NCBI GenBank assembly: GCA_963736855.1
Contig: CAVTQK010000021.1
Location: forward strand, 753,929 to 817,928
Length of the DNA stretch: 64,000 bases
Direction: 5' to 3'
Origin: an uncultured delta proteobacterium
GTDB taxonomy: Bacteria; Desulfobacterota; Desulfobacteria; Desulfobacterales; UBA2156
Part shown: positions 1 to 53,935 of the stretch, one piece after another
Numbering within the stretch: position 1 is the stretch's first letter
Layout: each line of letters opens with the position of its first letter
Position numbers and translations under genes: made by a program
The notes under the pieces: generated by a model
What the model was told of the DNA's origin: nothing
The model's input: only the letters and a program-made list of their open reading frames with translations
The model's database searches: none

Positions 1-330
1 ATGGAGTGGGCGATGAATAGAACGAAGATCGGCATTTCCCAGGATCAACTCGCTGACTTCTGTCGGCGCTGGCAGATTAGCGAGTTGGCTCTGTTTGGGT
101 CGGCGCTCCGCGAAGACTTTGGTCCAGACAGTGATGTAGACATTATGGTGACGTTTGCCCCTGGTGCAAAGTGGAGCCTTCTCGACCACGTGAGGATAGA
201 GCGAGAATTGGCTGACCTGTTGCACTGCAGGGTAGACCTGCTCACAAAACGAGCGGTTGAGCGAAGCGCCAACTGGATACTTCGCCGCGAGATTCTGAGC
301 ACAGCCGAGGTGGTCTATGGTGAGGGATGA
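1..330 (+). CDS. Minimal nucleotidyltransferase (MNT) antitoxin of an MNT-HEPN pair
   Basis: LFGS...SDVD motif; overlaps downstream HEPN/DUF86 gene; true start may be ATG 13. Confidence 0.9.
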   Translation: MEWAMNRTKIGISQDQLADFCRRWQISELALFGSALREDFGPDSDVDIMVTFAPGAKWSLLDHVRIERELADLLHCRVDLLTKRAVERSANWILRREILSTAEVVYGEG

Positions 331-655
331 GGCGGTGCTGTTAGACATCGTCCGGGCAGCTCGTCTGGTGCTTGAATTCAAGCAAGGTATGGGGAGGTCC
401 GCTTTTTTTGAAGATGTGAAGACTCAGTCAGCCATCCTGCACCAATTGATGTTGATGGGAGAAGCTGTAAAGCGGCTATCGGCGGAATTTCGCGCCCGTC
501 ATCCCCGAGTTCCGTGGTCGCTCATGGCGGGGATGCGAGACAAGCTGATTCATGGGTACGACATAGTGGACCTGGAGCAGGTTTGGCAGACAGCCGGTGA
601 GGATGTGCCAGAGTTGCTAGCTTTGATTGAACCCCTTCTGCCAAGGCAGGAGTGA
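317..655 (+). CDS. HEPN/DUF86 (HepT-like) RNase toxin
   Basis: GEAVK and MRDKLIHGY (Rx4H) motifs. Confidence 0.9.
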   Translation: MVRDEAVLLDIVRAARLVLEFKQGMGRSAFFEDVKTQSAILHQLMLMGEAVKRLSAEFRARHPRVPWSLMAGMRDKLIHGYDIVDLEQVWQTAGEDVPELLALIEPLLPRQE

Positions 656-705
656 AGGGAAGACCAGCCTGGGCACTGTGCTATCTGGTCGGCAAAGGTG
701 CCGCC

Positions 706-779
706 GCCCAACGAATAAGACTTCGCAGCGGACCATCAAAAGCTGCGCTTTTGCTGTCTGCTGAATTCAGGCGTTAGCG
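706..779 (+). other. attC site
   Basis: GCCCAAC ... internal palindrome ... GTTAGCG between cassette ORFs. Confidence 0.75.
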
Positions 780-814
780 TGCTCGCTCTGCCGGCAAAAG
801 ATAGGAAGAGAACT

Positions 815-1123
815 ATGATCAAAACAAAGCAGGACGTCCTAAATGTGCTCGATCAGCACCAATCCCAGCTGAGAGCACTTGGAGTGAGACGCATCGGGCT
901 ATTCGGTTCCTTTGTACGAGGAGAGCAACGGCCCGACAGTGACATAGATCTACTGGTCGAATTCGAGCCAGGACAAAAGACATTCGATACGTTTATGGAA
1001 CTCTCCTTCCTTCTGGAGGAAGTTCTAGAGCATAGGATCGAACTTGTCACCGTGGAGGCTCTCAGTCCCTATCTTGGTCCTCACATCCTCAGGGAGGTCG
1101 AGTATGCCACTCTCGCCGCTTGA
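815..1123 (+). CDS. MNT antitoxin (second pair)
   Basis: LFGSFVRGEQRPDSDIDLLVEF; ATG 815 preferred over GTG 779 at the attC end. Confidence 0.9.
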   Translation: MIKTKQDVLNVLDQHQSQLRALGVRRIGLFGSFVRGEQRPDSDIDLLVEFEPGQKTFDTFMELSFLLEEVLEHRIELVTVEALSPYLGPHILREVEYATLAA

Positions 1124-1310
1124 ATACCTTCGTCACATACTGGATGAGACCGAATACCTGATGGATGAAAGTCACGGTTTAAGCAAGGAGCACTTTCTGC
1201 AAGACGGAACGCTCAAGCGTGCCTTTGTGAGAAGCATCGAAATCATCGGAGAAGCGTCAAAGAAAGTACCCCTTCAGCTAAAGGATCGATATCCCGGAGT
1301 CAACTGGAAA
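1104..1310 (+). pseudogene. Truncated HEPN/DUF86 toxin
   Basis: RSIEIIGEASKK...PGVNWK, then homology stops before the catalytic Rx4H motif and runs into GC palindromes. Confidence 0.8.
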
Positions 1311-1396
1311 GCTAAGGAGGTTTATCCCGCTGCAGGCGGGGCGCACTCAAAGCGAATCGGCTTGTCCGCTGTAGGCGGAGCATCCAGTTAGGGCGT

Positions 1397-1736
1397 CACA
1401 TCGATCTTGTCGTTTTTTGTTTTGCCGCCGTGGATCGCTTTCATGTATAATGCGTGTCCGAGAACAAACGGTATTTTGTGTGCGGCACAAAGGTCGGCAA
1501 CCCGTTGCCAGTCGAAGATCCCGCCTGAAAGGCGGGGCAGAAAACACATTCAACGCCGACCACGACATCTTTAATGTCAGCGGTGACATCACTTTACCGT
1601 CACAAGCGAAAGGGGGCAACCCGCAGGGCGTTTTCTGTGCGAGAATGGGCCCTTAATCAGCTCGTCGGAGCACAGAAAACAAACTGCGGTTAATTCAACG
1701 ATGCCTCCCTTTTTAGGAAGGCCATAACTAGTATCA
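1397..1736 (-). mobile_element. IS110-family remnant: left end plus N-terminal transposase fragment, inserted in an attC
   Basis: Minus-strand translation gives DVVVGVECVFC..W..VADLCAAHKIPFVLGHALYMKAIHGGKTKNDKID (IS110 DEDD domain motif as I recall it); 1600-1736 nearly identical to reverse complement of 58705-58840. Confidence 0.8.
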
Positions 1737-1815
1737 AGCGGGTCGAGCAGACCGGTAATTGTTCCTGCCTTTATTTGGGCTTGGCTGGCCAGGCTGCTCA
1801 CCCTTTACGTTATAA
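1735..1815 (+). other. Right part of an attC interrupted by the IS110 remnant
   Basis: CAAGCG GGTCGAGCAG ... CTGCTCACCC ... GTTATAA; R'' box displaced. Confidence 0.7.
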
Positions 1816-1857
1816 GGATAGAAAATTTAGATTTTATAGGATGACGGTATTGGGAGG

Positions 1858-2046
1858 TTAAAATTTTGGTTCTAAACCAGCCTGCTTACAGATTTCATTA
1901 GCTGTTATTCGATCGAATTGTTTATGTCTTTTGACAGAGATTACCTTGGTATCATTCGTGTATATGGCATGATTACCGCCTTCCCTCAAAAGGTAAAAGC
2001 CGTTCTTTTCCAAGTAGCGGATTAAGTCACGTCGCTTGACAGACAT
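1858..2046 (-). CDS. hicA: HicA toxin
   Basis: KRRDLIRYLEKNGF..LREGGNH..RH motif; inverted in its cassette. Confidence 0.9.
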   Translation of the reverse strand: MSVKRRDLIRYLEKNGFYLLREGGNHAIYTNDTKVISVKRHKQFDRITANEICKQAGLEPKF

Positions 2047-2263
2047 TTTCGACTTCAACCGGAAGCTGTTCGATTAGCGCATTTCCTAAAGGAACTTCCT
2101 TTTTGAGCTGGCTGTAAGCGAGGATCATTTCACTGAGTGCATCTCTTAACATTTCGCGGCACTCTTCGAGGTCCTTACCTTCAGTGACAACTTCCGGCCA
2201 TTCGACAAGCTGGCCCATATATCCGGATTTAATTTTCGTATACTTTGCGGTATAATTGATCAT
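2027..2263 (-). CDS. hicB: HicB antitoxin
   Basis: EWPEVVTEGKDLEECREMLRDAL; overlaps hicA. Confidence 0.9.
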   Translation of the reverse strand: MINYTAKYTKIKSGYMGQLVEWPEVVTEGKDLEECREMLRDALSEMILAYSQLKKEVPLGNALIEQLPVEVENVCQAT

Positions 2264-2286
2264 TATTAACCTCCTGGGCTATATGT

Positions 2287-2315
2287 AATTTACACATTCT
2301 CGCTGATGATGTCAA
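2287..2315 (-). promoter_or_regulatory. sigma70 promoter for hicBA
   Basis: TTGACA-17bp-TAAATT on minus strand. Confidence 0.7.
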
Positions 2316-2367
2316 ATAACAATTTTAAAATTGAATAATTATAATGCCTTGAAAAATTTACTTTTTC

Positions 2368-2429
2368 TTATAACATCTGCATTCACAAGGACGCTCGTAA
2401 ACTCGCGCCTGTGATGCAGAGCGTTAGGG
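2368..2429 (+). other. attC site
   Basis: TTATAAC ATCTG CATTCACA ... TGTGATG CAGAGC GTTAGGG; canonical 5/6 spacers and extrahelical base. Confidence 0.9.
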
Positions 2430-2493
2430 TGGGTGGTCCCGTTGACCCCCAAGAAAAACGACATCTTTACAATTTTATAGAGGATTGTGGCAC

Positions 2494-3354
2494 ATGACAG
2501 GGCCAATACTGAGTTCTCACGCCGAGTTTTCTCATACAGTGCTTCCGGTCGTGGAAAAAGCTGTATTTCGTATGGGTGTCGCTGGTTCCTATGGTATTGA
2601 TTCCACTGATATCAGATGGGCCGCTGACCACGGGGCTAATTACTGGGTCTGGGGAAGAGGTTTCGGCAAGGTCACAGACGGAATCAGGGAAGTCATTAAG
2701 GGTGATCGCGAAAACCATGTGGTTGGCATGCTCGGGTGGGGCTTTTTCGGCTGGCAGGTGAGGCGGAGTGCGGAAAATGCCCTGCGGAAACTTGGTACGG
2801 ACTACCTGGATGTTTTCAAGCTGGGGTGGCTTGGGAGAACATCAATTTACAGTAAGGGAATGATCGACACCCTTCTGAAACTCAAACAAGAAGGTAAGAT
2901 ACGAAGCATCGGCACCAGCATCCATGATCGAAAGAAGGCTGGAAGGCTAGTGCTGGACTCAGAGATCGATCTGTTCATGATCCGTTACAATGCCAAGCAC
3001 CCTGGAGCCGAACAGGATATCTTTCCTCACCTGTCAAAGCGAAATCCGGCAGTGGTCAGTTATACGGCATTGGCTTGGGGGCAGCTGATCAGGCCATTGA
3101 AAGAAATCGCTATGCCTCCCTGGCCCGGCGGGGAGAGCTTCAATGGCCCGCCTCTTTCTCCGGAGCTCTGTTACCGGTTTGTTCTGACGAATCCAAATGT
3201 GCACGTTGTGTTGACCGGGCCGCAAAACCGGGAGCAGCTCAGTCAGAATATGGATGCAATAAAACAAGGGCCGTTGGATCCGGATGAAATGAGCTGGATC
3301 AGGCAGTACGGTCAATTGGTCAAATTAAAGAAAAGACTTGATTATCTGGGATAG
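2494..3354 (+). CDS. Aldo/keto reductase family protein
   Basis: LRKLGTDYLD, GKIRSIGTS, PNVHVVLTGP motifs. Confidence 0.85.
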   Translation: MTGPILSSHAEFSHTVLPVVEKAVFRMGVAGSYGIDSTDIRWAADHGANYWVWGRGFGKVTDGIREVIKGDRENHVVGMLGWGFFGWQVRRSAENALRKLGTDYLDVFKLGWLGRTSIYSKGMIDTLLKLKQEGKIRSIGTSIHDRKKAGRLVLDSEIDLFMIRYNAKHPGAEQDIFPHLSKRNPAVVSYTALAWGQLIRPLKEIAMPPWPGGESFNGPPLSPELCYRFVLTNPNVHVVLTGPQNREQLSQNMDAIKQGPLDPDEMSWIRQYGQLVKLKKRLDYLG

Positions 3355-3447
3355 ACGTAATTTCCAATTCCTTAACTTGAGGGACCGGACCGCACTAAGC
3401 GATCAATATGGGCAACATGGGCAACAATTTAATCAATCGGCGAAATC

Positions 3448-3507
3448 ACCGAACAAAATCTTCCAGCGGAGCACAAAAAGCCGCGCCCGTTGAAAAGTCC
3501 GTTAGGC
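3448..3507 (+). other. attC site
   Basis: ACCGAAC AAAAT CTTCCAGC ... GTTGAAAAG TCC GTTAGGC. Confidence 0.75.
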
Positions 3508-3525
3508 CAGAGGCCACAAGCTGCT

Positions 3526-3966
3526 ATGATCAAAATAAACAACTGCAAACCTGCCGTAACTAACCATCTCCTTTTGTTTCTTGCAGGACTTGTTTGGATA
3601 TTTGTTGGTATCACGCTTTTGTTTTTAGCATTTTCATGGCTATCAAGGGCAGCAAATATTGACGTTCAGTTGTTCACGATTACTGGAGTAATATTGGCAT
3701 TATTTGTTCATCACCTTGGCTTCTTAAAAATAGCAGATAAAAATTTACAGAGAATACTTTTAATGCATGGGAAGAGCTGTCTATTTGCCTTTATTCCTTG
3801 GAAAAGCTATCTAATTATTGCTGTTATGATTACGATAGGAGCAATTCTTCGTCATTCAACAATTCAAAAACAATATTTAGCGGTCTTATATATAGGCATT
3901 GGTTTAGCTCTTGTTTTATCGAGTGCCAGATATTTCAGAGTCTTCATTCGAGAAATTAGGAGGTAA
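3526..3966 (+). CDS. Hypothetical 4-TM membrane protein
   Basis: Hydrophobic segments; bounded by attC sites. Confidence 0.75.
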   Translation: MIKINNCKPAVTNHLLLFLAGLVWIFVGITLLFLAFSWLSRAANIDVQLFTITGVILALFVHHLGFLKIADKNLQRILLMHGKSCLFAFIPWKSYLIIAVMITIGAILRHSTIQKQYLAVLYIGIGLALVLSSARYFRVFIREIRR

Positions 3967-3969
3967 TTG

Positions 3970-4032
3970 GCCTAGCCAGCCAGTTCACCAGTCCTCCGAA
4001 AAGCGTGGCGGCTGATGACCGGCACGTTAGGA
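3970..4032 (+). other. attC site (degenerate R'')
   Basis: GCCTAGC CAGCC AGTTCACC ... TGATGAC CGGCAC GTTAGGA. Confidence 0.7.
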
Positions 4033-4039
4033 GCGAAGA

Positions 4040-4738
4040 ATGATAAACGAAAAGATCGAGATTGTTTTACCAGAGAACATTATGGAAAACTGGCAGGAAC
4101 TCCTTAACATCCTATCCCACACTGCGAACATTCCTGCCGCATTGATTATGAGATTGCGCGATGCTGATATTGAGGTGTTTGTTTCCAGCCAGAGCGAAGG
4201 AAATCCTTACCATCCAGGTGACAGTGAGCAGTTCCATGGGTCGGGACTGTATTGTGAAACCGTCATTAAAACGCAGAACAAACTTCTTGTGCCCGATGCT
4301 CTGGTAGACGACAACTGGAATAATAACCCAGACATAAAGCTCAACATGATTTCCTATTTAGGATTTCCCCTTATGTTGCCAAATAAACAACCGTTCGGCA
4401 CTATTTGTGTTCTTGATAACAAGAGAAATGAATATTCGAAAACACTTGAAAATCTCATGCTAAATTTCAAGAAATTGATAGAAACACATCTCGAAATGAT
4501 TTATGTGAATGCAGTGCTTGGCGATAAAAACAAACGATTATCAGACTATTTGATGGAGCTTCAAGCTCTACGAGGCGTCGTCCCAATTTGCGCAAACTGC
4601 AAAAACATCAAAGATAAAGAAGACAATTGGCATCCCATTGAGCATTATCTTATTCGACATCCTCATGCTGATTTCAGCCACGGTATTTGCCCTGCGTGCA
4701 TGAAAAAGCTGTACCCGCAATTTAAAGAACGCTCCTAA
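4040..4738 (+). CDS. GAF domain protein with C-terminal Cys/His Zn motif
   Basis: YLGFPL..P..FGTICVLD; ICANCK...SHGICPAC. Confidence 0.85.
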   Translation: MINEKIEIVLPENIMENWQELLNILSHTANIPAALIMRLRDADIEVFVSSQSEGNPYHPGDSEQFHGSGLYCETVIKTQNKLLVPDALVDDNWNNNPDIKLNMISYLGFPLMLPNKQPFGTICVLDNKRNEYSKTLENLMLNFKKLIETHLEMIYVNAVLGDKNKRLSDYLMELQALRGVVPICANCKNIKDKEDNWHPIEHYLIRHPHADFSHGICPACMKKLYPQFKERS

Positions 4739-4761
4739 CCAAGAAGAGTGAGTACGGGCTT

Positions 4762-5145
4762 ATGACAGACGAAGAAAAGAAAAACGCAATCCGAAGCTAT
4801 CTTGCTGCGTACAACGGATTCGATATTGAAGGAATGGTTGCCATCGTCCATCCCGAGGTTGTTTTTAAGAATGTTTCGGGCGGTGAGGTCAATGCCCAAA
4901 CAGAAGGTGTCGAGCAATTCCGACAGTTGGCGAACAAATCGAAAGCGTTGTTTTCATCTCGGAATCAGAAGGCAACCAAATTCAACTTTACCGGAGACAT
5001 CGTTACAGTGGATATCACATATGAGGGTGTCCTGGCTGTCGATCTTCCAAATGGAATGAAAGCCGGAGAAGTACTTCGGCTCAACGGGCGATCGGAGTTT
5101 GAATTCAAAGATGGCAAAATGTTTAAAATTACTGACTTCAGCTAG
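4762..5145 (+). CDS. SnoaL/NTF2-like protein
   Basis: YLAAYNGFDIEGM...GRSEFEFKDGK. Confidence 0.8.
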   Translation: MTDEEKKNAIRSYLAAYNGFDIEGMVAIVHPEVVFKNVSGGEVNAQTEGVEQFRQLANKSKALFSSRNQKATKFNFTGDIVTVDITYEGVLAVDLPNGMKAGEVLRLNGRSEFEFKDGKMFKITDFS

Positions 5146-5157
5146 GCGCAGAAATCC

Positions 5158-5238
5158 GCATAACAACTCGTTCAACGCATTCTCGCCAAAACGCCTCTTT
5201 GCTCTGCTTTGGCAAACCGGTTAACGCGAACTTTAGAT
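5158..5238 (+). other. attC site (degenerate R')
   Basis: GCATAAC AACTC GTTCAACG ... GGTTAAC GCGAAC TTTAGAT. Confidence 0.65.
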
Positions 5239-5259
5239 TTTATACATTGATGAGATAAT

Positions 5260-5583
5260 ATGAAGCTTAATAAGTGGTTTAAGAGATTACTCAAATTGAT
5301 ATTGGCAATTGCTATATTTTCGTTTGCAGGGATCTTCTTTCTTACAGGTGGTAAATTTTTCAAAAAAACAGGCATTTCAAACTGTGTTATTGTAAATGAT
5401 GAAAAAGATTTTACAGGCAATCGGCTTAAACATTCTAAATCGCTTTTCTATTTTCGTATACCAACTATCGAATGCATTGCAAAAGATAAGCAAATCGACA
5501 ATGGAGACGGAAACAAGAAGGGTAAAGTCAGGTGGGCCGAGTGTACGTACGGGCCTGATTGTGATGAAGCAGGCATGTTTTAG
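5260..5583 (+). CDS. Hypothetical membrane-anchored Cys-containing protein
   Basis: N-terminal TM segment; follows attC. Confidence 0.65.
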   Translation: MKLNKWFKRLLKLILAIAIFSFAGIFFLTGGKFFKKTGISNCVIVNDEKDFTGNRLKHSKSLFYFRIPTIECIAKDKQIDNGDGNKKGKVRWAECTYGPDCDEAGMF

Positions 5584-5649
5584 TGGTGTTATCAAATCCT
5601 TCGACTCATTGAAAACAACTCAAAAACAGTCACAAAATAAGGAGGCACT

Positions 5650-6507
5650 ATGGTAAATAACTTAAGGAGTACATGGTTCTTCTGTATCATCTTTGTTATT
5701 GTCTTCGGAGCATTTTCTATGGCAGGAGGAGAATCTGAATTTAAGGACACGCCGTACTTTTCCGGAGTGTCGAGCCATAAAATTACTGAAGCCTCAGATC
5801 AGGAGTTCGCTGATTATCGTTTTTATAACGGCAAGGATTGCACTACAATAGAGGGAAAAAAGTATTTCAGGGTGTATACCTTAAAAGAAGGGGCAAAGCA
5901 GTCCAGCGAACTTCAGATTTCGCGTAACTATTCGAATTCCGTCAAGAGTATGGGCGGTACGGTGATATTCGACGGGGAGTGCTCTGGTTCGGACTGTGCA
6001 GAAAACTGCGGCGGTCGCATGATGGTTGGAAGGGTCACAAAGGGGGGCAATGAGCTTTGGATTGAGGTGGCGCCTTTCAATGACGGGAATGATTATTACC
6101 TAACTGTCGTGGTTAAGGAGGCCATGAAACAGGACGTCACAGCCAGTGACATGTTCGATGCCCTCAATTGTGAAGGGCATATTGCCCTATACATAAACTT
6201 TGATACCGGCAAGTCGATTATTAAACCTGATTCCAAGCAAACCATTTCTCAAATCGTTCAGATGTTAAAAGCTAACCCCGGACTGAATATAAGCATCGAG
6301 GGGCACACAGATAATATGGGTAACCCTAAATCGAACAAGACGCTCTCTGATGAACGGGCAAAGGCAGTTGTTTCGGCGATTGTGGCTCAGGGGATTGATG
6401 CGAAACGCCTGAGCGCTTTAGGGCATGGTCAAGAGAAACCTGTTGCTGATAATAAAACAGAGGAAGGCAGAGCGAAGAACCGCAGGGTCGAACTTGTGAA
6501 GAAATAA
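5650..6507 (+). CDS. OmpA-family peptidoglycan-binding protein
   Basis: IEGHTD..N..LS..RA..KNRRVE; signal peptide; AAGGAGG RBS. Confidence 0.9.
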   Translation: MVNNLRSTWFFCIIFVIVFGAFSMAGGESEFKDTPYFSGVSSHKITEASDQEFADYRFYNGKDCTTIEGKKYFRVYTLKEGAKQSSELQISRNYSNSVKSMGGTVIFDGECSGSDCAENCGGRMMVGRVTKGGNELWIEVAPFNDGNDYYLTVVVKEAMKQDVTASDMFDALNCEGHIALYINFDTGKSIIKPDSKQTISQIVQMLKANPGLNISIEGHTDNMGNPKSNKTLSDERAKAVVSAIVAQGIDAKRLSALGHGQEKPVADNKTEEGRAKNRRVELVKK

Positions 6508-6581
6508 GCTATACAACACCGCATGATAATAGGGGAAGGGGTTTCCTTAGCCGTAAAGAATAAGGGGGTATTTGAAAAAGC

Positions 6582-7349
6582 ATGTCGGATATACACGAGA
6601 CAGTAAAGAAACAATTTGACAATCAAGCATCGAATTTCAGTAATTGGTCCGTTACAAAAAATACTGAATATCAAAGGGCTTATTTTGATTTTTGTGGAAG
6701 CTCCACAAAGGACACATTATTAGATTTTGCGTGTGGGACAGGTGAATATGCTATTTTCGCAGCACCAAAGGTTAAATATGTTCAAGGTGTTGATATCTCA
6801 AAGGGAATGATTGAGATAGCGCGAAAGCAAGCAAAGCGAGAAAATATCAATAACATTAGCTTCTTGTGCAATCCGGTCGAACATACTCCTTTTGAGGCTG
6901 GCTCCTTCTCCGTTGTGGTTTGTCGATCAGCATTTCATCATTTCCATGATTATGCAGGAATTTTTGATGAAATGATTCGATGCTGTCAGCAAAGTGGACG
7001 AATAAGCGTGCAAGATATTGTTGCCTATCCAAACGATAAAATAGATAATTTTTTTGAAGAATTTGAAAAATTGGTTGATATAAGTCATCATAAAACATTG
7101 ACCAAAGAATTTATTTTGAACTTGTATACCCAAAGGGGACTAAAAATAAAGAATACATTTGAAATTGAGGTCGAACTCAATTTTCAAGAATATCTGGGAC
7201 ATGCTAAACAATCAGAAGAAAATAAAAAAAGAATAATTAATCTAATTGAAAAAGGATCCAAAGATCAAGATATTTCAAAATTCTTTATCCTTAAAGAAGG
7301 AGTCCTATTTTTCAAACGAAATGTCTTTTTAATATTAGGTGAGAAATAA
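6582..7349 (+). CDS. Class I SAM-dependent methyltransferase
   Basis: LLDFACGTG; GVDIS; AFHHF. Confidence 0.9.
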   Translation: MSDIHETVKKQFDNQASNFSNWSVTKNTEYQRAYFDFCGSSTKDTLLDFACGTGEYAIFAAPKVKYVQGVDISKGMIEIARKQAKRENINNISFLCNPVEHTPFEAGSFSVVVCRSAFHHFHDYAGIFDEMIRCCQQSGRISVQDIVAYPNDKIDNFFEEFEKLVDISHHKTLTKEFILNLYTQRGLKIKNTFEIEVELNFQEYLGHAKQSEENKKRIINLIEKGSKDQDISKFFILKEGVLFFKRNVFLILGEK

Positions 7350-7367
7350 AGTCGAAAGAGTGAAAAC

Positions 7368-7436
7368 GGCTAACAATTGGGTGCAGGGGATTGCTTTCCG
7401 CTGCGCACCAAGCAACCCATGACCCATGCGTTCGGT
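7368..7436 (+). other. attC site
   Basis: GGCTAAC AATTG GGTGCAGG ... CATGACC CATGC GTTCGGT. Confidence 0.8.
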
Positions 7437-7444
7437 GGCAAGAT

Positions 7445-8506
7445 ATGATGAAACTAAGCGATATAGGTTTTGACAACCGGTTTGAAGCACATGTCGAAGA
7501 CTTGCGTCAAGAGGGTCAAGACATTGCACGCGTGTCAGCAGTTGACCGGGGCTCGTACCTCGTTAGGAATGAACTCAGGGAAGTTCCCGCCGAACTTGCC
7601 GGGAAGTTTTATTTTCGTGTTGAGTCCTCTGTTGACCTTCCGTGTGTCGGCGATTGGGTTACTGTACAGTATCACAACGATGACACTTCGGCAATTATCC
7701 ATGGCGTCTTTCCAAGAAAAACGTTTTTGCGTCGCAAGCGTGCCGGTGAAAATGTTGATTTCCAGATGATTGCAGCCAACATTGACATAGCTTTTATCGT
7801 CCAATCGTGTCACTTTGACTTCAATCTGCGAAGAATGGATCGGTATTTGGTAATGGCAACGGATGGCGATGTTGAGCCGATTGTCATCCTCACCAAGACG
7901 GACCTGATTTCTCATGATGAACTACAACGAAAGCTTATGGCTATCAGACAGACTGGCATCACAGCCAGAGTTATCACCCTGAGTAATATAACTGGCAACG
8001 GATTTGATGAATTCCAACAGGTGTTAATGCCGGGGCAAACGTATTGCCTTCTTGGGTCATCGGGAGTCGGCAAGACTACAATCATCAACCGTCTGATCGG
8101 GCAAGACACATTTTATACAAAGGCCGTCAGCGGAACTGGAGAAGGCACACACACAACAGCGCGGCGGCAGCTCATCATGCTTGATCAAGGGGCGATGTTT
8201 GTTGATACACCCGGAATGCGGGAACTGGGCCTTCTCGGAACCAGCGATGCGATAAATCAAAGTTTTGAAGACATTTATGAACTTTCCGTGACTTGTCGCT
8301 TTGCCAACTGTAGCCACACTCAAGAGCCTGACTGTGCGGTCTTGACCGCAATTAAAAAAGGTGAGTTGAGTGAAGAGCGATATTTTAGCTATATGAAGCT
8401 TAAGAAGGAATCGGAGTACCACGAAATGTCGTACGTGGATAAACGGAAAAAGGACAGAGCATTCGGACGCTTCATTAAAACGGCAATGAAGAAGATGAAG
8501 GATTGA
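7445..8506 (+). CDS. rsgA: Ribosome small subunit-dependent GTPase A (circularly permuted GTPase)
   Basis: TKTD, GSSGVGKT, HTT, DTPG, CRFANCSH..EPDC. Confidence 0.9.
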   Translation: MMKLSDIGFDNRFEAHVEDLRQEGQDIARVSAVDRGSYLVRNELREVPAELAGKFYFRVESSVDLPCVGDWVTVQYHNDDTSAIIHGVFPRKTFLRRKRAGENVDFQMIAANIDIAFIVQSCHFDFNLRRMDRYLVMATDGDVEPIVILTKTDLISHDELQRKLMAIRQTGITARVITLSNITGNGFDEFQQVLMPGQTYCLLGSSGVGKTTIINRLIGQDTFYTKAVSGTGEGTHTTARRQLIMLDQGAMFVDTPGMRELGLLGTSDAINQSFEDIYELSVTCRFANCSHTQEPDCAVLTAIKKGELSEERYFSYMKLKKESEYHEMSYVDKRKKDRAFGRFIKTAMKKMKD

Positions 8507-8515
8507 AAGACTGAA

Positions 8516-8579
8516 ACCGAACAACGCCATTTACCTGATCGCGTGGTGCCCGCGCTCCGGGTGATAGCTGGCGTTTTAA
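8516..8579 (+). other. attC site (degenerate)
   Basis: ACCGAAC AACGC CATTTACC ... GGTGATA GCTGGC GTTTTAA. Confidence 0.7.
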
Positions 8580-8593
8580 TTACTGGAAATGCA

Positions 8594-8920
8594 ATGGGAA
8601 AAATCAACTACTCAATAGAAATCGAGATATATAAAGGCCATGGCTGCGATTTCCATCATCTCGGAGAAAGGTTCAGCTATCCTGAGGATATCGGCAAAAT
8701 TTGCCCATGGTTATTGGATAGCATCAACGCAATGATCCGTGTTCTTCAATTTGGAGGCACCTTGCCGTGGAAATACCAAAATACCGAATATGAAAAAGTA
8801 ATCAACGAGGCCGGTCAAACCACGGAATTCGTGCGTTGCCCAGACCCAACCGATGCGGGTGTAATTGTTAAGATCACAAGAAATAAACTGGCTGAACCGA
8901 AAGAGGTCGGATGGTCATGA
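8594..8920 (+). CDS. TIGR04076-like small Cys protein
   Basis: C...G..F...ICP...CPDP pattern. Confidence 0.65.
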   Translation: MGKINYSIEIEIYKGHGCDFHHLGERFSYPEDIGKICPWLLDSINAMIRVLQFGGTLPWKYQNTEYEKVINEAGQTTEFVRCPDPTDAGVIVKITRNKLAEPKEVGWS

Positions 8921-8959
8921 GAATGGAATGGAAGGTAGAGAGGGAAGGAGGGAGGTCGA

Positions 8960-9421
8960 ATGAGACGACCGAATGATAGACCACACGAGAAACAACCGAA
9001 CAAAAAGGGTCTTGGTATACCTGAGTGGCGCAGGCGAACGGGCAGTTTCACATCGCTGTCTGTACTGCTTCTTGCCGCTTGGATAGCTCCTGTCCTGGCC
9101 GAGGAGCCTGCGGGCAAGGATCTGCGGCTGTTCTATCAGCAGAACTGCGTCGGTTGTCACGGGCCGGACGGCTCGGCGCTCAGCCCTGATGGCACGAAAC
9201 TCAGCGGGCAGGACTTGACCAATCCGCGCTGGCTACAGCGCACCGGGGACGAAGAGATGGTGAAGGTCATCCTGAATGGGAAGTTTTTCGGGCTGGCCAT
9301 GCCAAGATTCAAAGACAAACTCAGTAAGGACGAGGCCCAGCGGATGGTCACAGACATTATCCGCAAGAGTAAGAAGGGGAATGTGATCGAGCCAGAGTTA
9401 ACGGGGCCGGACGGAAAATAG
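8960..9421 (+). CDS. Monoheme cytochrome c
   Basis: CVGCH heme motif, distal AMP, signal peptide; start uncertain. Confidence 0.85.
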   Translation: MRRPNDRPHEKQPNKKGLGIPEWRRRTGSFTSLSVLLLAAWIAPVLAEEPAGKDLRLFYQQNCVGCHGPDGSALSPDGTKLSGQDLTNPRWLQRTGDEEMVKVILNGKFFGLAMPRFKDKLSKDEAQRMVTDIIRKSKKGNVIEPELTGPDGK

Positions 9422-9473
9422 TCTAGACTGGTTTAACGTTGGACGGCAGGGAACGGGGAGAGGAGAGAAACCG

Positions 9474-10365
9474 ATGATCAGAGGAATGATTGTAGTATCA
9501 ATCCTTGTAGCCGGTCTATTGATAGCTGGATTATCACAGGCATCGAGCGCAGTCATAGAAACCCAGCACCTCATCGTAAGCGATGCCACCGGCAAATTGT
9601 CGAATGATCAACTGAAAAGCTTGGCCGATCAAGCGCAAGCGATGTTGGGGCGCATTCTTGCATTCTGGTCTGCCGATTCCGGAGTAGACCGATTTGGAAA
9701 AGATACGGGTCGTTTTCGATGTACCACGCAGGGATGTCTATTCCAGTGTCTTTTACTGGGAAAAAAAGGATGGTGGACGTATACGCATCGTTCAGGTCTT
9801 CAAATCTGAAGGATCGCCGCAAATGATGGCGCACAAGCTTACAAGTGCGGTCTTTCCCCAAAAGGATAAATTGATTCGCAACATGATGGGTATTCTTACA
9901 GAAGCGCAAATCGGGAATCCGTTAACCTTTCCTATGTGTGGATTCAGCAGTGACGAATGGGTATTGGCTCTTCTGGAAACGAAATCATACATCCCCCTAA
10001 ACGAATTGGGACCTGATCATGAGTCATGGGGTATGAAGGACGCCGGGGGCGGCAAACTTTCGATTCTTGATAAAGCAAAACAACACAAGGCATATGCCGA
10101 AACGGGGTCTTTCGGAAACTATTTGTATAAGACCTATGGAATCAACAAGATAAAGCGGCTACAACGACTCTCCCAGGAGAAGGATAGGCCATGGCAGGAC
10201 GTGTTCGGGATCAGTCTGCAGGAACTTGAGGCCAATTGGCTGAAGCATCTGAGGACGAATGGAGAAACAAGAGAGGAAAATGTGTCGATAGTATTAAAGT
10301 TGTTTGAAAGAAACCCCGGCACAGCCTGCTCGGAGGCGCAGAAGCTTGCACCCAGGAAACAGTAG
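9474..10365 (+). pseudogene. Secreted protein (weak peptidase MA-like resemblance) split by a frameshift near 9697
   Basis: ORFs 9474-9809 and 9694-10365 join as FGK-IRVVFD if one A is removed from GGAAAAGAT. Confidence 0.65.
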
Positions 10366-10426
10366 ACAACCAAGGCAGTATGATTTAATCAGTAAAGATG
10401 AACATCAACAAACAAAGGGGATTATT

Positions 10427-10687
10427 ATGGCTGAACTGATCGTTTTTCACAGTGGAAACCCTAATTGAATGTCATGCAAAAAGGCTATAGGTGTAGCCAA
10501 AGATATGAAAGAACTGTTCGGAGATAAATTAGAGTTGAATATCTACACTACTGATTCCCAAGAGGCTCAGAAATATAATTTTAAAAGCTCAACGAATGTT
10601 CTGCTTGATCAAGACATAGTTCCCCTTGATGTGTCTACAGACAAGAGCAAAATGAAGGATTTTCTTTCAGAAAAATTCGAAGAGTGA
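10427..10687 (+). CDS. Putative thioredoxin-like selenoprotein (UMSC motif), 86 aa
   Basis: RBS + ATG 10427 in frame with TGA 10466-10468, then M-S-C; hairpin GGCTA-TAGGTG-TAGCC downstream. Confidence 0.75.
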
Positions 10688-10695
10688 GGAAAAAT

Positions 10696-11007
10696 ATGAA
10701 AACTTTATTCATAATTTCCACAAGCGACGGAGAAACGATTTACAATGCGATGAGACTTGCCAATGTCGGCGTAAAAAAGGGAGGTGATGTAAGTGTTTTT
10801 ATGCTGGGCAAGGGTGTGCTTTTTGAACAGTCAGGTACGGAACAATTCAACGTAATGGAGCAGATAAACCAGTTTAAGGGTGATTTTTATGTCTGAGGTG
10901 TCTGCATGAAATCCCACGGTCTGGAGGGATCAGGTACATGTCCCGTTGCATGGATGGATGATCTGTACGAGCTTGTCCAAGAGGCGGACAAAGTTATAAA
11001 TTTTTAA
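10696..11007 (+). CDS. DsrE-family selenoprotein (UGVC motif)
   Basis: Readthrough of TGA 10894-10896 gives GVCMKSHG..TCP...MDDLYELVQEADKVINF*, a typical DsrE C-terminus. Confidence 0.85.
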
Positions 11008-11061
11008 CAAATATTAATTGAAAGCACCAAATAACCCGTCGGTCAACCGGCAGCGTTAGCA
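11002..11061 (+). other. Degenerate attC-like site
   Basis: TTTTAAC at DsrE stop and GCAGC GTTAGCA; weak internal pairing. Confidence 0.4.
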
Positions 11062-11095
11062 TCATTTTCTAATCAAATAACAGGGAGAGAAATCT

Positions 11096-11675
11096 ATGGA
11101 AAAAATCAAAATTGACAGTGGTGCGGCTTTTTTATATCCGATGCCAATGGTATTGGTAGGCTCTGTTGTTGAAGGAAAAGCAAATTTCATGGCGGTAGGC
11201 TGGGTTTCAAGAGTCAATTTCAAGCCTCCTTTGTTTGCGATAGCATTAGGTCCCCATCATACAAATAAAGGCATTGACGAAAACAAAGAATTCAGTATCA
11301 ATATTCCTGATGTTTCGTTAATCGAGAAAACCGATTATTGCGGACTGGTTTCAGGGAGTAAAACAGATAAATCCGAACTTTTCAATATTTTCTATGGTGA
11401 CTTTGGGCAAAGCTCCGCTGATTGAAGAATGTCCGGTTTGCATGTCATGCTCTTTATATGATGCGGTTAAACTTCCGTTTAATACGCTTTACATCGGAGA
11501 GCCGAAAGAGGTTTTTACAGAAGAAAAATATATGACAGATAAAATGTTGGATATTAAAAAAGTCAATCCGTTCACGTTGACGATGCCGGACAATCATTAT
11601 TGGTCTGTCGGCGAAAATCTTGGAAAGGCATGGAATATCGGAAAAAGTTTAAAGAAAAAAGGTTTCGGAAAATGA
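11096..11675 (+). pseudogene. Flavin reductase-like (flavoredoxin) protein, frameshift near 11403
   Basis: YPMP..LVG; DYCGLVSG; continues KAPLIEECP in another frame; extra T in GACTTTGGG. Confidence 0.8.
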
Positions 11676-11896
11676 TAACCAATCATAAGAAATAAGCTGA
11701 ACCGTCAGACAACACCCCTAACCCGGATATTTCATGAAATTTTTCAACGATATTCGGCGTGCCAATCAATGACAACGGGTAGAATGGTTTTTTAAATTTT
11801 TTCAATAGATAAACGGTCATTGTTTTTAAGTGGTTTGTTCCTGATGTTGTTTAGGGGCCAATCGCTGAAGTTTGTATCAGGCCGCAAAGAGAAACC

Positions 11897-12358
11897 ATGA
11901 ACTCAATCAGCCACACGAAATCCTTCGAAATGGCTCGTCCTGTTTCTGAACTGTTTCCTCTGTTCAGCCCCGAAGGTGAAAAGAAATGGGTGCCGGGCTG
12001 GGACTACGAAAATGTAACGGGAAAGTCCGAACTTTTTGAGGACTTTGTTTTTTTAACCGAAACCCATGATCATGGAACAACTCATGCGATTTGGATAGTA
12101 AAGAAATATGACCCCAAATCGCATTTCATTCAGTTCTACAAAATAGAGCCGGAAGACAAAATTGGAGTTGTCACAGTAAAGTGTTCAAAATTAGAGACTT
12201 CAAAAACAAAGGTTCAAGTGACGTACAAATATATTGCCCTGTCACCATCTGGGAAAAAGTTTATTGCTCAGTTCAGCAAAAGTGCTTTTGAAGAATTCAT
12301 TGGTGAATGGCAGACATTGCTATTGAATTATTTTAAGTCCAAAGGGCAACAAGTTTGA
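11897..12358 (+). CDS. SRPBCC/START-like hypothetical protein
   Basis: LFPLFSPEGEKKWVPGW motif. Confidence 0.7.
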   Translation: MNSISHTKSFEMARPVSELFPLFSPEGEKKWVPGWDYENVTGKSELFEDFVFLTETHDHGTTHAIWIVKKYDPKSHFIQFYKIEPEDKIGVVTVKCSKLETSKTKVQVTYKYIALSPSGKKFIAQFSKSAFEEFIGEWQTLLLNYFKSKGQQV

Positions 12359-12489
12359 GTTTTTACGATTTCATTAGGGTTAACTGTTGTGCAAGTCCCC
12401 CACCCAGCTTCCGGATAAGATTACAGGGCGGTTTTAGGTGATCCGTATCTTTTTATTTCCTTGATATAGCCCATAGTAATTCCATTGAG

Positions 12490-12632: not shown

Positions 12633-13187
12633 GAAAGCTATAGCAAAAATTCCGTTCCATACCGATTTCTTTGGGTGGTTTCACGCAAAAGCCCTTTTTC
12701 ATCGTTTTTCATACGGGAGGCCAAAATGAACTTAGTCCAACCCTATTTGAGAAAGATCCCTGAATGTTTTTCCCACCCAATAACCGCATGGTTTTTCGTC
12801 CTTTCCTTCTCCATAACCGTGTGGCTTTTCATCCTCTCATTTTTATTGAAACGTTGCCTATGAAAAAACTCCTGAACAGGTTTGAAGCGCGATGATCTGC
12901 TTTAAACCTGCCGGCGGTGATCTATGGCATGAAAGCACGGTGACCGCGTCAGATGGCCGGGGGAACCAAACATACAAAATGACCCGAATATTGGTCATCG
13001 GCAACGGTTTGATCTGATCTTGAGTTTAAAATCCTAACATGATGATCTTCTTGAACAAAGCGGCTTAAACACGTGTGCCCCTTTTTATGCTTTGTATCAT
13101 GGAAAAGGGTGCCATGAAATTCAAACACACCATTTGATATATTCTCCCACCTCGGAATCAGCAGTTCAGCATGATCCATAAAGGAGG

Positions 13188-13542: not shown

Positions 13543-13884
13543 ATGAAAATGAACCGAGAAAGAAATTCGCCAGGTATCTATAAACTGCATATCGGGCGCA
13601 CTCTTGGCCTGGAAGATGTGGAAAAAGTACTTGAGCGCACCTCCTTTGAGGTTATGGAAAAAGCGGTTAGAACACTGGGATTAAAATTGGCTCGGATAGA
13701 TTTGTTAAAAGACGAAACAGTGGTGTTTTTCAGCGGAGATAAAAAGATTGCAACTGAACTCAAGTCGGTTTTCCGAAAGACCTACGATAAATGCAAAGTA
13801 AGCCTTCGGGTTTCCTCTGTCTCAGATTTGGCAAAAGCCCCTAAAAAAAATGCTCATCTTGGAAAGAGGATGCTCCAAAATTGA
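13543..13884 (+). CDS. Hypothetical protein
   Basis: AAGGAG RBS; stop codon supplied by the MITE end. Confidence 0.65.
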   Translation: MKMNRERNSPGIYKLHIGRTLGLEDVEKVLERTSFEVMEKAVRTLGLKLARIDLLKDETVVFFSGDKKIATELKSVFRKTYDKCKVSLRVSSVSDLAKAPKKNAHLGKRMLQN

Positions 13885-14036
13885 TGGCTTCGTAAAAAGT
13901 CCAATTTCTGCGTTGCGCATCATCCCGTTGCGATTTCGACGTACGATAAGTACGCCTCATCACACGGGATTCGCGATGCCTTGAACTTGAACTTTTTACT
14001 TTGCCATCTGATTTTCGACTTTTTACGAGTTCATCA
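13882..14036. mobile_element. 155-bp MITE, copy 1
   Basis: TIRs TGATGGCTTCGTAAAAAGTC / GACTTTTTACGAGTTCATCA; AAAT on both flanks; inverted near-identical copy at 38199-38353. Confidence 0.85.
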
Positions 14037-14064
14037 AAATTCATGAAGAAAGGATCAGTAAAAA

Positions 14065-14982: not shown

Positions 14983-14995
14983 AAAAACACCGAAA

Positions 14996-53876: not shown

Positions 53877-53935
53877 GCCTAACCTGCTAATCAGCCGCGC
53901 GGCTTTTTGGGTCGGCAGAATTAGCCTTGTTGGGC
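53877..53935 (-). other. attC site
   Basis: Minus: GCCCAAC AAGGC TAATTCTG ... CTGATTA GCAG GTTAGGC. Confidence 0.8.

Follow-up and report, generated by a model that had tools for sequence, protein, structure and literature searches.

Do two neighbouring genes that are each interrupted by an in-frame TGA form a working pair of selenoprotein genes, and if so, what holds them together and how did they come to lie where they do? The question is raised by tsoX (gene 1) and a gene for a DsrE-like protein (gene 2), which follow one another on the forward strand of a 64,000-nt stretch of assembly GCA_963736855.1 (contig CAVTQK010000021.1, here C21, positions 753,929 to 817,928 of the forward strand; hereafter the window). 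Under the standard code each gene splits into two open reading frames (ORFs). An earlier reading made from the letters alone (the sequence-only reading) had described both ORF calls as broken by an in-frame TGA with Cys three codons on; this description proved correct, with the TGAs at codons 14 and 67. Comparison with other genomes leaves little doubt that both genes encode selenoproteins of recognized families, and on balance we favour the view, by a modest degree, that they are two genuine and probably co-transcribed selenoprotein genes making up a conserved module with a dedicated selenol/thiol couple.

Gene 1 runs from ATG 10427 as MAELIVFHSGNPN, then TGA, then MSCKK, and ends at a TGA terminator codon at 10685-10687; a Shine-Dalgarno-like AAGGGG stands 7 nt before its ATG. 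The ATG of gene 2 lies 8 nt past the tsoX stop, its selenocysteine (Sec, U) codon has the context ...GDFYV-U-GVCMK..., and its product has an additional conserved Cys, C82. Because the purine run of gene 2, a GAGG Shine-Dalgarno, sits within the 3' end of tsoX, co-transcription of the two genes is likely on this layout. A scan for sigma-70 promoters and terminators was uninformative, with counts near those of shuffles (8 vs 5.0 and 3 vs 2.0, respectively).

The genome holds the Sec machinery, as had been set out as a check on the sequence-only reading: selA (617 bits), selB (381 bits, over the cut-off), selD (374 bits, with an in-frame TGA of its own) and a tRNA-Sec with anticodon TCA (75.8 bits against Rfam, with ARAGORN agreeing) are all present. 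A scan of other genomes, taking one genome per species, yielded 28 TsoX loci, all in Desulfobacterota-type metagenome-assembled genomes, and TGA stands at the aligned Sec14 codon in every one of them; among 60 relatives, TsoX scored over the cut-off in 5 other genomes, each time with one TGA. Of 301 genomes searched within the order, 32 gave a match to a profile of the DsrE-like protein at E<=1e-15, and 29 of the 30 loci examined carry TGA at the aligned Sec67 codon, the exception (L106, 37% identity) having Cys.

The same positions were followed in a public protein collection. It contains 33 TsoX clusters, 7 of which were aligned: five are full-length with W at position 14, where W represents TGA read by code 4, and two start at Met15. 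DsrE-like relatives number 1495 at E<=1e-5; of the 120 listed, the majority are fragments of 66 aa that stop at the TGA, and the 21 longer homologues that were aligned comprise 19 with W, one with Cys (P0014, 72% identity) and one with a gap. Many short-contig gene calls in this collection use code 4 (TGA=W) and so yield artefactual 'full-length' products in which Trp fills the Sec position. In three DsrE-family paralogues of Cys form from the window's own genome, Cys aligns on both Sec67 and Cys70, and no other Cys column is invariant between the protein and its Cys-form homologues and paralogues. The expectation that homologues would place Cys at the TGA was thus borne out for the DsrE-like gene (L106, P0014 and the paralogues) but not for TsoX, for which no Cys form occurs among the 7 aligned of the 33 database clusters; its Cys counterpart is found at the superfamily level only, as the CPYC motif of PDB 1NHO. 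Standard gene callers render both genes as short fragments, an annotation that recognition of the Sec codons corrects.

Gene 1 matches NCBIfam NF045809, the model of the 'HSGNPxU motif (seleno)protein TsoX', over profile positions 2-82 of 82 (E 1.7e-42, 143.6 bits, cut-off 52), and a six-frame search of the genome with the same model gave 136.3 bits with 1 TGA in the match; it is a full member of this family. Read through, it has no Pfam match. Across the 28 TsoX sequences, H8, S9, C14(U) and C17 are invariant. The proposal that gene 1 is thioredoxin-like is supported by a six-sequence TsoX profile, which finds 1NHO (an 85-aa thioredoxin-like protein, E 1.5e-4) and aligns the CPYC of this protein with U14xxC17, and by an AlphaFold model with a predicted local distance difference test score (pLDDT) of 88.2, whose best Foldseek matches in PDB are thioredoxins at a TM-score of ~0.7. 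The window protein shares with its family a whole-protein score far over the cut-off, the HSGNPxU and UxxC motifs, the conserved Sec codon and hairpin, and the small thioredoxin fold. It differs in that its gene does not lie beside tsoABC, which is on contig C9, and has instead a DsrE-like partner in an integron-adjacent variable region; the missing tsoABC operon is a difference of context only, as the hidden Markov model defines membership. In its available text, a 2026 review (PMC13188914) lists TsoX with NF045809 and UxxC and credits it to Haft & Tolstoy 2025. A second TsoX-like gene at 12701, suggested by a direct repeat (D8), was rejected, there being no ORF at that place and the match being due to chance.

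For gene 2, read-through does restore the DsrE C-terminus, as had been claimed: the 103-aa product aligns over residues 1-103 with profile positions 1-116 of 116 of Pfam PF02635 (E 4.7e-11, 43.3 bits, gathering cut-off 22.7). This full-length match, together with the DsrE/YchN fold of the AlphaFold model (pLDDT 81; residues 72-82 poor), places the protein in the DsrE family. The top four Foldseek hits are YchN 1jx7 (E 7.4e-5, TMq 0.71), DsrE 2hy5_A, 3pnx and 3mc3, with TusD 2d1p_A lower in the ranking (rank 48, E 0.09); sequence and profile searches of PDB with this protein returned nothing relevant. Like DsrEFH/TusBCD and YchN (2hy5, 2d1p, 1jx7), it has the fold, the small size and a conserved Cys or Sec after the central beta-strand, and it differs from DsrEFH/TusBCD in its CxxC/UxxC motif. 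No second or third DsrE-family ORF (dsrF/dsrH- or tusB/tusC-like) adjoins gene 2, the genome's other PF02635 matches lying elsewhere. DsrE-like UxxC selenoproteins have been catalogued since the Sargasso Sea survey of 2005 (Zhang, Fomenko & Gladyshev, PMC1088965) and are listed for Desulfovibrio vulgaris (Zhang et al. 2006, PMC1794560), so far as the accessible parts of both articles go; the same parts describe PF02635 membership, UxxC, Cys-form homologues and a G in the SECIS apical loop, all as seen here, and no fixed partner, whereas the window gene recurs next to TsoX. The find adds a further example to each of two selenoprotein families already on record.

A bacterial selenocysteine insertion sequence (SECIS) is a hairpin shortly downstream of the UGA, according to the spacing rule of the bSECIS literature, and such a hairpin follows each TGA (Table 1). 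In tsoX, 98.9% of cells are paired across 29 sequences and two pairs, 18-33 and 21-30, show compensatory change (G-C to A-U and U-A to C-G); slid controls are 18-51% paired, RNAalifold independently finds the same helix, and the five codons GCU-AUA-GGN-GUA-GCC are nearly fixed at synonymous sites. In the DsrE-like gene, 89.0% of cells are paired (26 sequences), compensatory change affects 3 pairs (6 cells), and an A-A mismatch of the window genome is replaced by an A-U pair in 8 sequences and by G-C in 2; RNAalifold recovers the outer stem, 6/7 pairs, all but 23-32. Its GGUCUG loop may resemble the SelB-binding loop of the Escherichia coli fdhF SECIS. For each hairpin 0/500 shuffles reach the observed covariation score, a control that overstates significance, as the sequences are related and most pairs simply invariant. 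Folded singly, the 60 nt downstream of each TGA gave no significant structure (z -1.14 and +1.28), and a search of Rfam at a permissive threshold gave chance matches only and no SECIS family; the hairpins are nevertheless more than chance, because the comparative evidence supports both. The two hairpins named in the sequence-only reading are therefore present, with G-rich loops consistent with a bacterial SECIS and with the outer ATCCC/GGGAT stem right, but the inner 'CCA/TGG' pairing given for gene 2 is not the conserved register. Recoding of both UGAs by SelB, tRNA-Sec and the downstream hairpins is thereby shown indirectly and strongly, on comparative grounds.

Recurrence of the pair and its relation to the Tso and SAO systems

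A DsrE-like Sec gene accompanies TsoX in 7 of the 28 loci centred on TsoX. It directly follows TsoX in L051, L052, L053, L055 and L064 and directly precedes it in L074, which makes six adjacent cases; in L070 it is found 1.2 kb upstream. Conversely, TsoX is next door in 10 of the 29 non-own DsrE-centred loci. After removal of same-genome loci (recognized by identical BLAST figures), the pair occurs in at least 11 other Desulfobacterota genomes of several families, with an intergenic gap of 8-22 nt in the loci read; even where the gene order is reversed (L074/L085), both genes are still adjacent and on the same strand. At the DNA level this genome resembles the others only within 10381-11023, a stretch made up of the two genes plus a few bases on either side. 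The best DNA match of the pair (90.3% over 580 nt) is in a genome of a different family, and TsoX and the DsrE-like Sec gene were found in 0/5 same-genus genomes; together these findings indicate that the two genes were transferred horizontally as a unit. Partnership between the two genes is frequent, and it is not obligatory.

Next, the ORFs neighbouring these loci were clustered, with names assigned by motif (a LULAxC read-through being called TsoA and NEPxGxxU TsoC). Recurrent neighbours are an ArsR-like regulator, TsoA, a J-domain protein, a SAM (S-adenosylmethionine) methyltransferase, TsoB (rhodanese/DsbD), TsoC, a thioredoxin-reductase-like enzyme (TrxR) and MvhD/FlpD-like genes, in orders exemplified in Table 1. 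The genome's own three-selenoprotein-operon (Tso) locus, outside the window, reads TrxR-like, ArsR, TsoA, J-domain, TsoB, two TsoC paralogues (NEPxGxxU), a DedA-like membrane protein and a Cys-form DsrE; TsoA, TsoB, the TsoC paralogues, ArsR and the TrxR-like gene lie within C9:340302-344808, TsoB scores 975 bits with 2 TGA, and the CxxC DsrE-family gene stands two genes after TsoC. Near selD, a further DsrE-fold CxxC gene aligned with Sec67/Cys70 lies ~450 nt downstream of that gene (C15:107386-109026; L010, L117) and could be a YedF-like partner in selenium metabolism.

When both models were run on 61 relatives, three of the 5 other TsoX genomes (G024, G031 and G056) had the TsoX-DsrE pair and no TsoB at E<=1e-100, an absence that is not proven at their completeness of 83-91%, and a fourth (G060) had TsoX directly before TsoB with no DsrE-like gene nearby. 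Judged by this gene content, the module is independent of TsoB, and TsoX appears to alternate between two partners, one of DsrE fold and the other the DsbD-like TsoB. Thioredoxin clients include both DsbD-type proteins and persulfide carriers, and for this reason a role of TsoX as the reductant of the couple would fit.

An analogous arrangement is described in the available text of a preprint on the SAO system of C. difficile (Haft & Gwadz, bioRxiv 10.1101/2022.07.06.499078), in which a ~85-aa MJ0307-like thioredoxin-like (seleno)protein, SaoT (CD2368), lies beside a CxxC DsrE-like protein, SaoD (CD2369), and for which the authors propose binding of a mercury-like moiety. Common to both systems, within that text, is a small thioredoxin-like protein, in UxxC and CxxC variants, whose neighbour is DsrE-like and bears an invariant CxxC; SaoD is there never a selenoprotein, whereas the window-type DsrE-like partner is almost always in the Sec form. 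The SaoT model NF040730 matches TsoX weakly (E 0.041), the DsrE-like protein has no match among SaoD-type NCBIfam models, and, unlike in SAO, no ABC transporter or MerB-like genes lie near the window pair. Three points of modest weight may be new: the recurrence of the TsoX/DsrE-like adjacency as a compact, TsoB-independent two-gene unit, the parallel to SaoT/SaoD, and the position next to an integron.

Integron context

The pair had been placed inside a cassette array, a proposal that was upheld in part. An integron integrase (TIGR02249, 440.9 bits, cut-off 265) is encoded at C21:744805-745752 on the reverse strand, 8.2 kb ahead of the window and 18.6 kb upstream of tsoX, divergent to the array; three further integrase matches over the cut-off lie on other contigs. 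attC sites were sought with our own hairpin scans (AAC...GTT ends) and with an nhmmer profile made from 7 local attC sites. On the forward strand, attC-like hairpins mark gene boundaries before the window (-8010, -6315, -3668 and -192 in window coordinates) and within it as far as ~8581 (Table 1), and the pair belongs to the same variable block: window positions 1-12380 have no counterpart in the 5 same-genus genomes except scattered matches of ~110-1,080 nt at unrelated loci (among them a 1.1-kb rsgA gene, 78% in G003), and alignment with congeners picks up again at ~12380 for G005 and at 14989 for the rest. Across 2-14 kb the GC content stays at 39-47%, except for 52% in the 9-10 kb bin, and it is 55-57% beyond 15 kb. 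That the pair sits in an acquired, integron-contiguous variable block is solid.

It is a further step to regard the pair as an integron cassette itself, or as the end of a multi-gene cassette, and thus as mobile cargo for Sec-competent hosts. We consider this possible but rather unlikely. Speaking for it are the TIGR02249 integrase on the opposite strand, the attC-like hairpins at most boundaries to 8581 and perhaps 9447, the strain-specific, low-GC character of 1-12380 with its accessory rsgA, and the 90% DNA identity of the pair to a copy in another family, with none found in congeners; its orientation with the array, its compactness, its place in a strain-specific low-GC block downstream of intI and the evidence of horizontal transfer are all shared with integron cassettes. 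It differs from them in that no canonical attC was found to bound the pair, which is where the original proposal becomes uncertain: our scans place no attC-like element from ~9447 up to the pair, and GTT is absent from the 61 nt that precede tsoX (10366-10426). Just after the DsrE-like gene stands a 32-nt mini-palindrome (Table 1) that was not called in the terminator scan; well below known attC lengths and too short for a canonical attC, it could be an attC remnant or a weak terminator. Furthermore, no integrase gene was found in the 58 homologous loci of other genomes (322 kb), in which attC-like hits (15) are at background level. The attC detectors themselves were improvised and are not very specific: one scan gives 137 hits genome-wide, a relaxed scan returned hits without enrichment over the array (8 in 14 kb vs 21 in 50 kb), and a MAFFT alignment of the 7 local attC sites gave no consensus structure.

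The gene rsgA (7391-8506) is the genome's only copy (TIGR00157, 160.6 bits), is low in GC and is present in 2/6 genus genomes. Its use as a marker of the array end was withdrawn in view of this distribution and of the attC-like hairpins that flank it (7364-7436 and 8517-8581); rsgA may itself be an integron cassette.

If the pair were integron cargo, it would exemplify horizontal transfer gated by the recoding machinery of the host, as such cassette genes would be useless (truncated) in recipients without selA/B/C/D; a literature search for selenoprotein genes as integron cassettes found, judged by its listing, none addressing the combination. Otherwise the locus is a correct but unsurprising catalogue entry, fairly ordinary and well supported. 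The broadest version, in which the Sec module is cargo of a chromosomal integron in a sulfate-reducer-type bacterium, with cassette pools partitioned by the code of the host, and in addition represents a general Sec-thioredoxin/DsrE partnership of Tso and SAO, seems to us unlikely.

Outside the array, a well-formed 59-nt attC-like hairpin of the array sequence type occurs at 53877-53935 on the reverse strand, and nhmmer reports weaker attC-like matches at C21:803824 and C21:800537. A pair of identical 61-nt attC-like hairpins, 5.8 kb apart, brackets the TsoX gene of another genome (L077:3987-4047 and L077:9795-9855, reverse strand).

Proposed chemistry of the couple and rival readings

According to the mechanism we favour, each UGA is recoded by SelB and tRNA-Sec via a small hairpin 14 nt downstream with a G-rich apical loop, and TsoX carries Sec as its N-terminal active-site residue, at the CxxC position (U14xxC17). 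Sec67 of the DsrE-like protein would carry or accept a sulfane-sulfur-type adduct (alternatively selenium or another soft electrophile), to be resolved by Cys70, or might simply form an Se-S bond with Cys70. As the thioredoxin-like partner, TsoX would reduce the DsrE-like protein or take the adduct over, and would in turn be recycled by a thioredoxin-reductase-type enzyme. On this view the module moves between Desulfobacterota genomes, in which it is found either inside Tso neighbourhoods or alone. We infer that TsoX and the DsrE-like protein are probably coupled in function; the adjacency of their genes, echoed by SaoT/SaoD, suggests the testable idea of a dedicated Sec-thioredoxin serving a DsrE-fold carrier. 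A sulfur or selenium relay in particular is a more tentative proposition, which we think could hold but would not expect to: the leading candidate for the transferred group is sulfane sulfur, or selenium by analogy with relays from rhodanese to TusA to DsrE.

Several observations weigh against this picture of a dedicated couple. The partner is not within the examined DNA in 21/28 TsoX loci and 19/29 DsrE-like loci, some of which end at contig ends, and TsoX adjoins TsoB instead in L054, L069 and G060. Foldseek provides no residue-level map of Sec67 onto the catalytic Cys78 of DsrE or TusD. Metagenome and metatranscriptome contigs align to 9600-10385 and to a short stretch within the DsrE-like gene that is conserved (10878-10948), not to the pair itself; the matching RNA contigs cover the upstream gene only, and the share of sampled words in any one sequencing run is <= 0.23, figures that carry no information on expression. 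Lastly, a metalloid role would suit the ArsR-type regulators of related loci just as well.

Such a metalloid role, in which the UxxC motifs are soft-metal ligands and the two proteins a binding and hand-over pair for As, Hg, Te, Se or organometallic species, is the main rival account, to which we give a minority share. ArsR-family genes head many related neighbourhoods (cluster c6) and the own Tso locus, but ArsR-family regulators also control non-metal redox genes, and no transporter, lyase or methyltransferase of a known metal system adjoins the pair in the window. The pairing in SAO, with the mercury-like binding proposed for it in the available text, and the weak match of TsoX to the SaoT model NF040730 would suit this account, but the DsrE-like protein reaches no SaoD-type NCBIfam model.

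Two functionally independent redox proteins that became neighbours through joint transfer would account for the loci, the majority by the above counts, in which each gene stands alone; we nevertheless hold this to be improbable, given adjacency on the same strand in 11 other genomes of several families, once in reversed order, the short gaps, and the analogous pairing of thioredoxin-like and DsrE-like proteins in the unrelated SAO system. The reading of both TGAs as ordinary stops in truncated or decayed ORFs, to which the gene callers that stop at both TGAs, the 66-aa form of most listed DsrE entries, the start of most TsoX entries at Met15 and the frameshifted genes on both sides of the pair might seem to lend colour, is virtually ruled out, as is that of pseudogenes, by the conservation of frame, post-TGA residues and hairpin over dozens of genomes, by Cys in place of Sec in homologues and by the complete Sec machinery.

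Flanking genes and repeats

Table 1. Positions of the pair, its recoding elements and surrounding features (window coordinates unless a contig is named), with gene orders of related loci
Feature	Position	Strand	Description
tsoX (gene 1)	10427..10687	+	86-aa thioredoxin-fold selenoprotein, H8-S-G-N-P-N-U14-M-S-C17
Sec14 in-frame TGA of tsoX	10466..10468	+	codon 14; Cys = codon 17
SECIS-like hairpin of tsoX	10483..10498	+	GGCUAU / loop AGGU / GUAGCC, starts 14 nt after TGA
DsrE-like selenoprotein gene (gene 2)	10696..11007	+	103 aa, U67-G-V-C70
Sec67 in-frame TGA of DsrE-like gene	10894..10896	+	codon 67; Cys = codon 70
SECIS-like hairpin of DsrE-like gene	10911..10930	+	AUCCCAC / loop GGUCUG / GAGGGAU, starts 14 nt after TGA
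Mini-palindrome, 32 nt	11029..11060	+	ATAAC-CCGTCGG-TCAA-CCGGCAG-C-GTTAG, just after DsrE-like gene
attC-like hairpins	709-782, 2371-2428, 3448-3507, 7364-7436	+	at gene boundaries
Last reasonably clear attC-like hairpin before pair	8517..8581	+	hairpin scans, nhmmer
Weaker attC-like hairpins	near 3976-4033, 5161-5226, 9391-9447 (possible)	+	
Upstream gene	9474..10365	+	split into overlapping ORFs 9474-9809 and 9694-10365
Own Tso locus	C9:338991-344808		not in window
Gene order, L064			TrxR-ArsR-TsoA-J-TsoX-DsrE
Gene order, L101			ArsR-TsoA-J-TsoX-DsrE
Gene order, L084			ArsR-TsoA-TsoX-DsrE
Gene order, L087 and L088			ArsR-TsoA-DsrE
Gene order, L069			ArsR-TsoA-TsoX-TsoB-TsoC

Neither Pfam nor NCBIfam has a match for the gene upstream of the pair. 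Contigs from wetland metagenomes and metatranscriptomes are 90-99% identical to this gene, are without one base at 9693, and give way to unrelated sequence at 10359-10385, immediately ahead of the pair. Downstream lies a flavin-reductase-like gene (11096-11675, Pfam Flavin_Reduct), likewise called as overlapping ORFs (11096-11425 and 11394-11675), with a one-base frameshift near a GGG run at ~11405 that marks either a pseudogene or an assembly indel.

Beyond this gene, a repeated 110-150-nt element at 11712-11860 is not foldable as a single hairpin. A ~160-nt repeat at 13876-14045 is present in dozens of copies (75-99% identity) in the own genome and in congeners and resembles miniature inverted-repeat transposable elements or repetitive extragenic palindromes; a second repeat family is found at 1400-1740. 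At the window start, two toxin-antitoxin pairs of the MNT/HepT type (nucleotidyltransferase and RNase) occupy 1-655 and 779-1391, with the first attC-like hairpin of the window between them.

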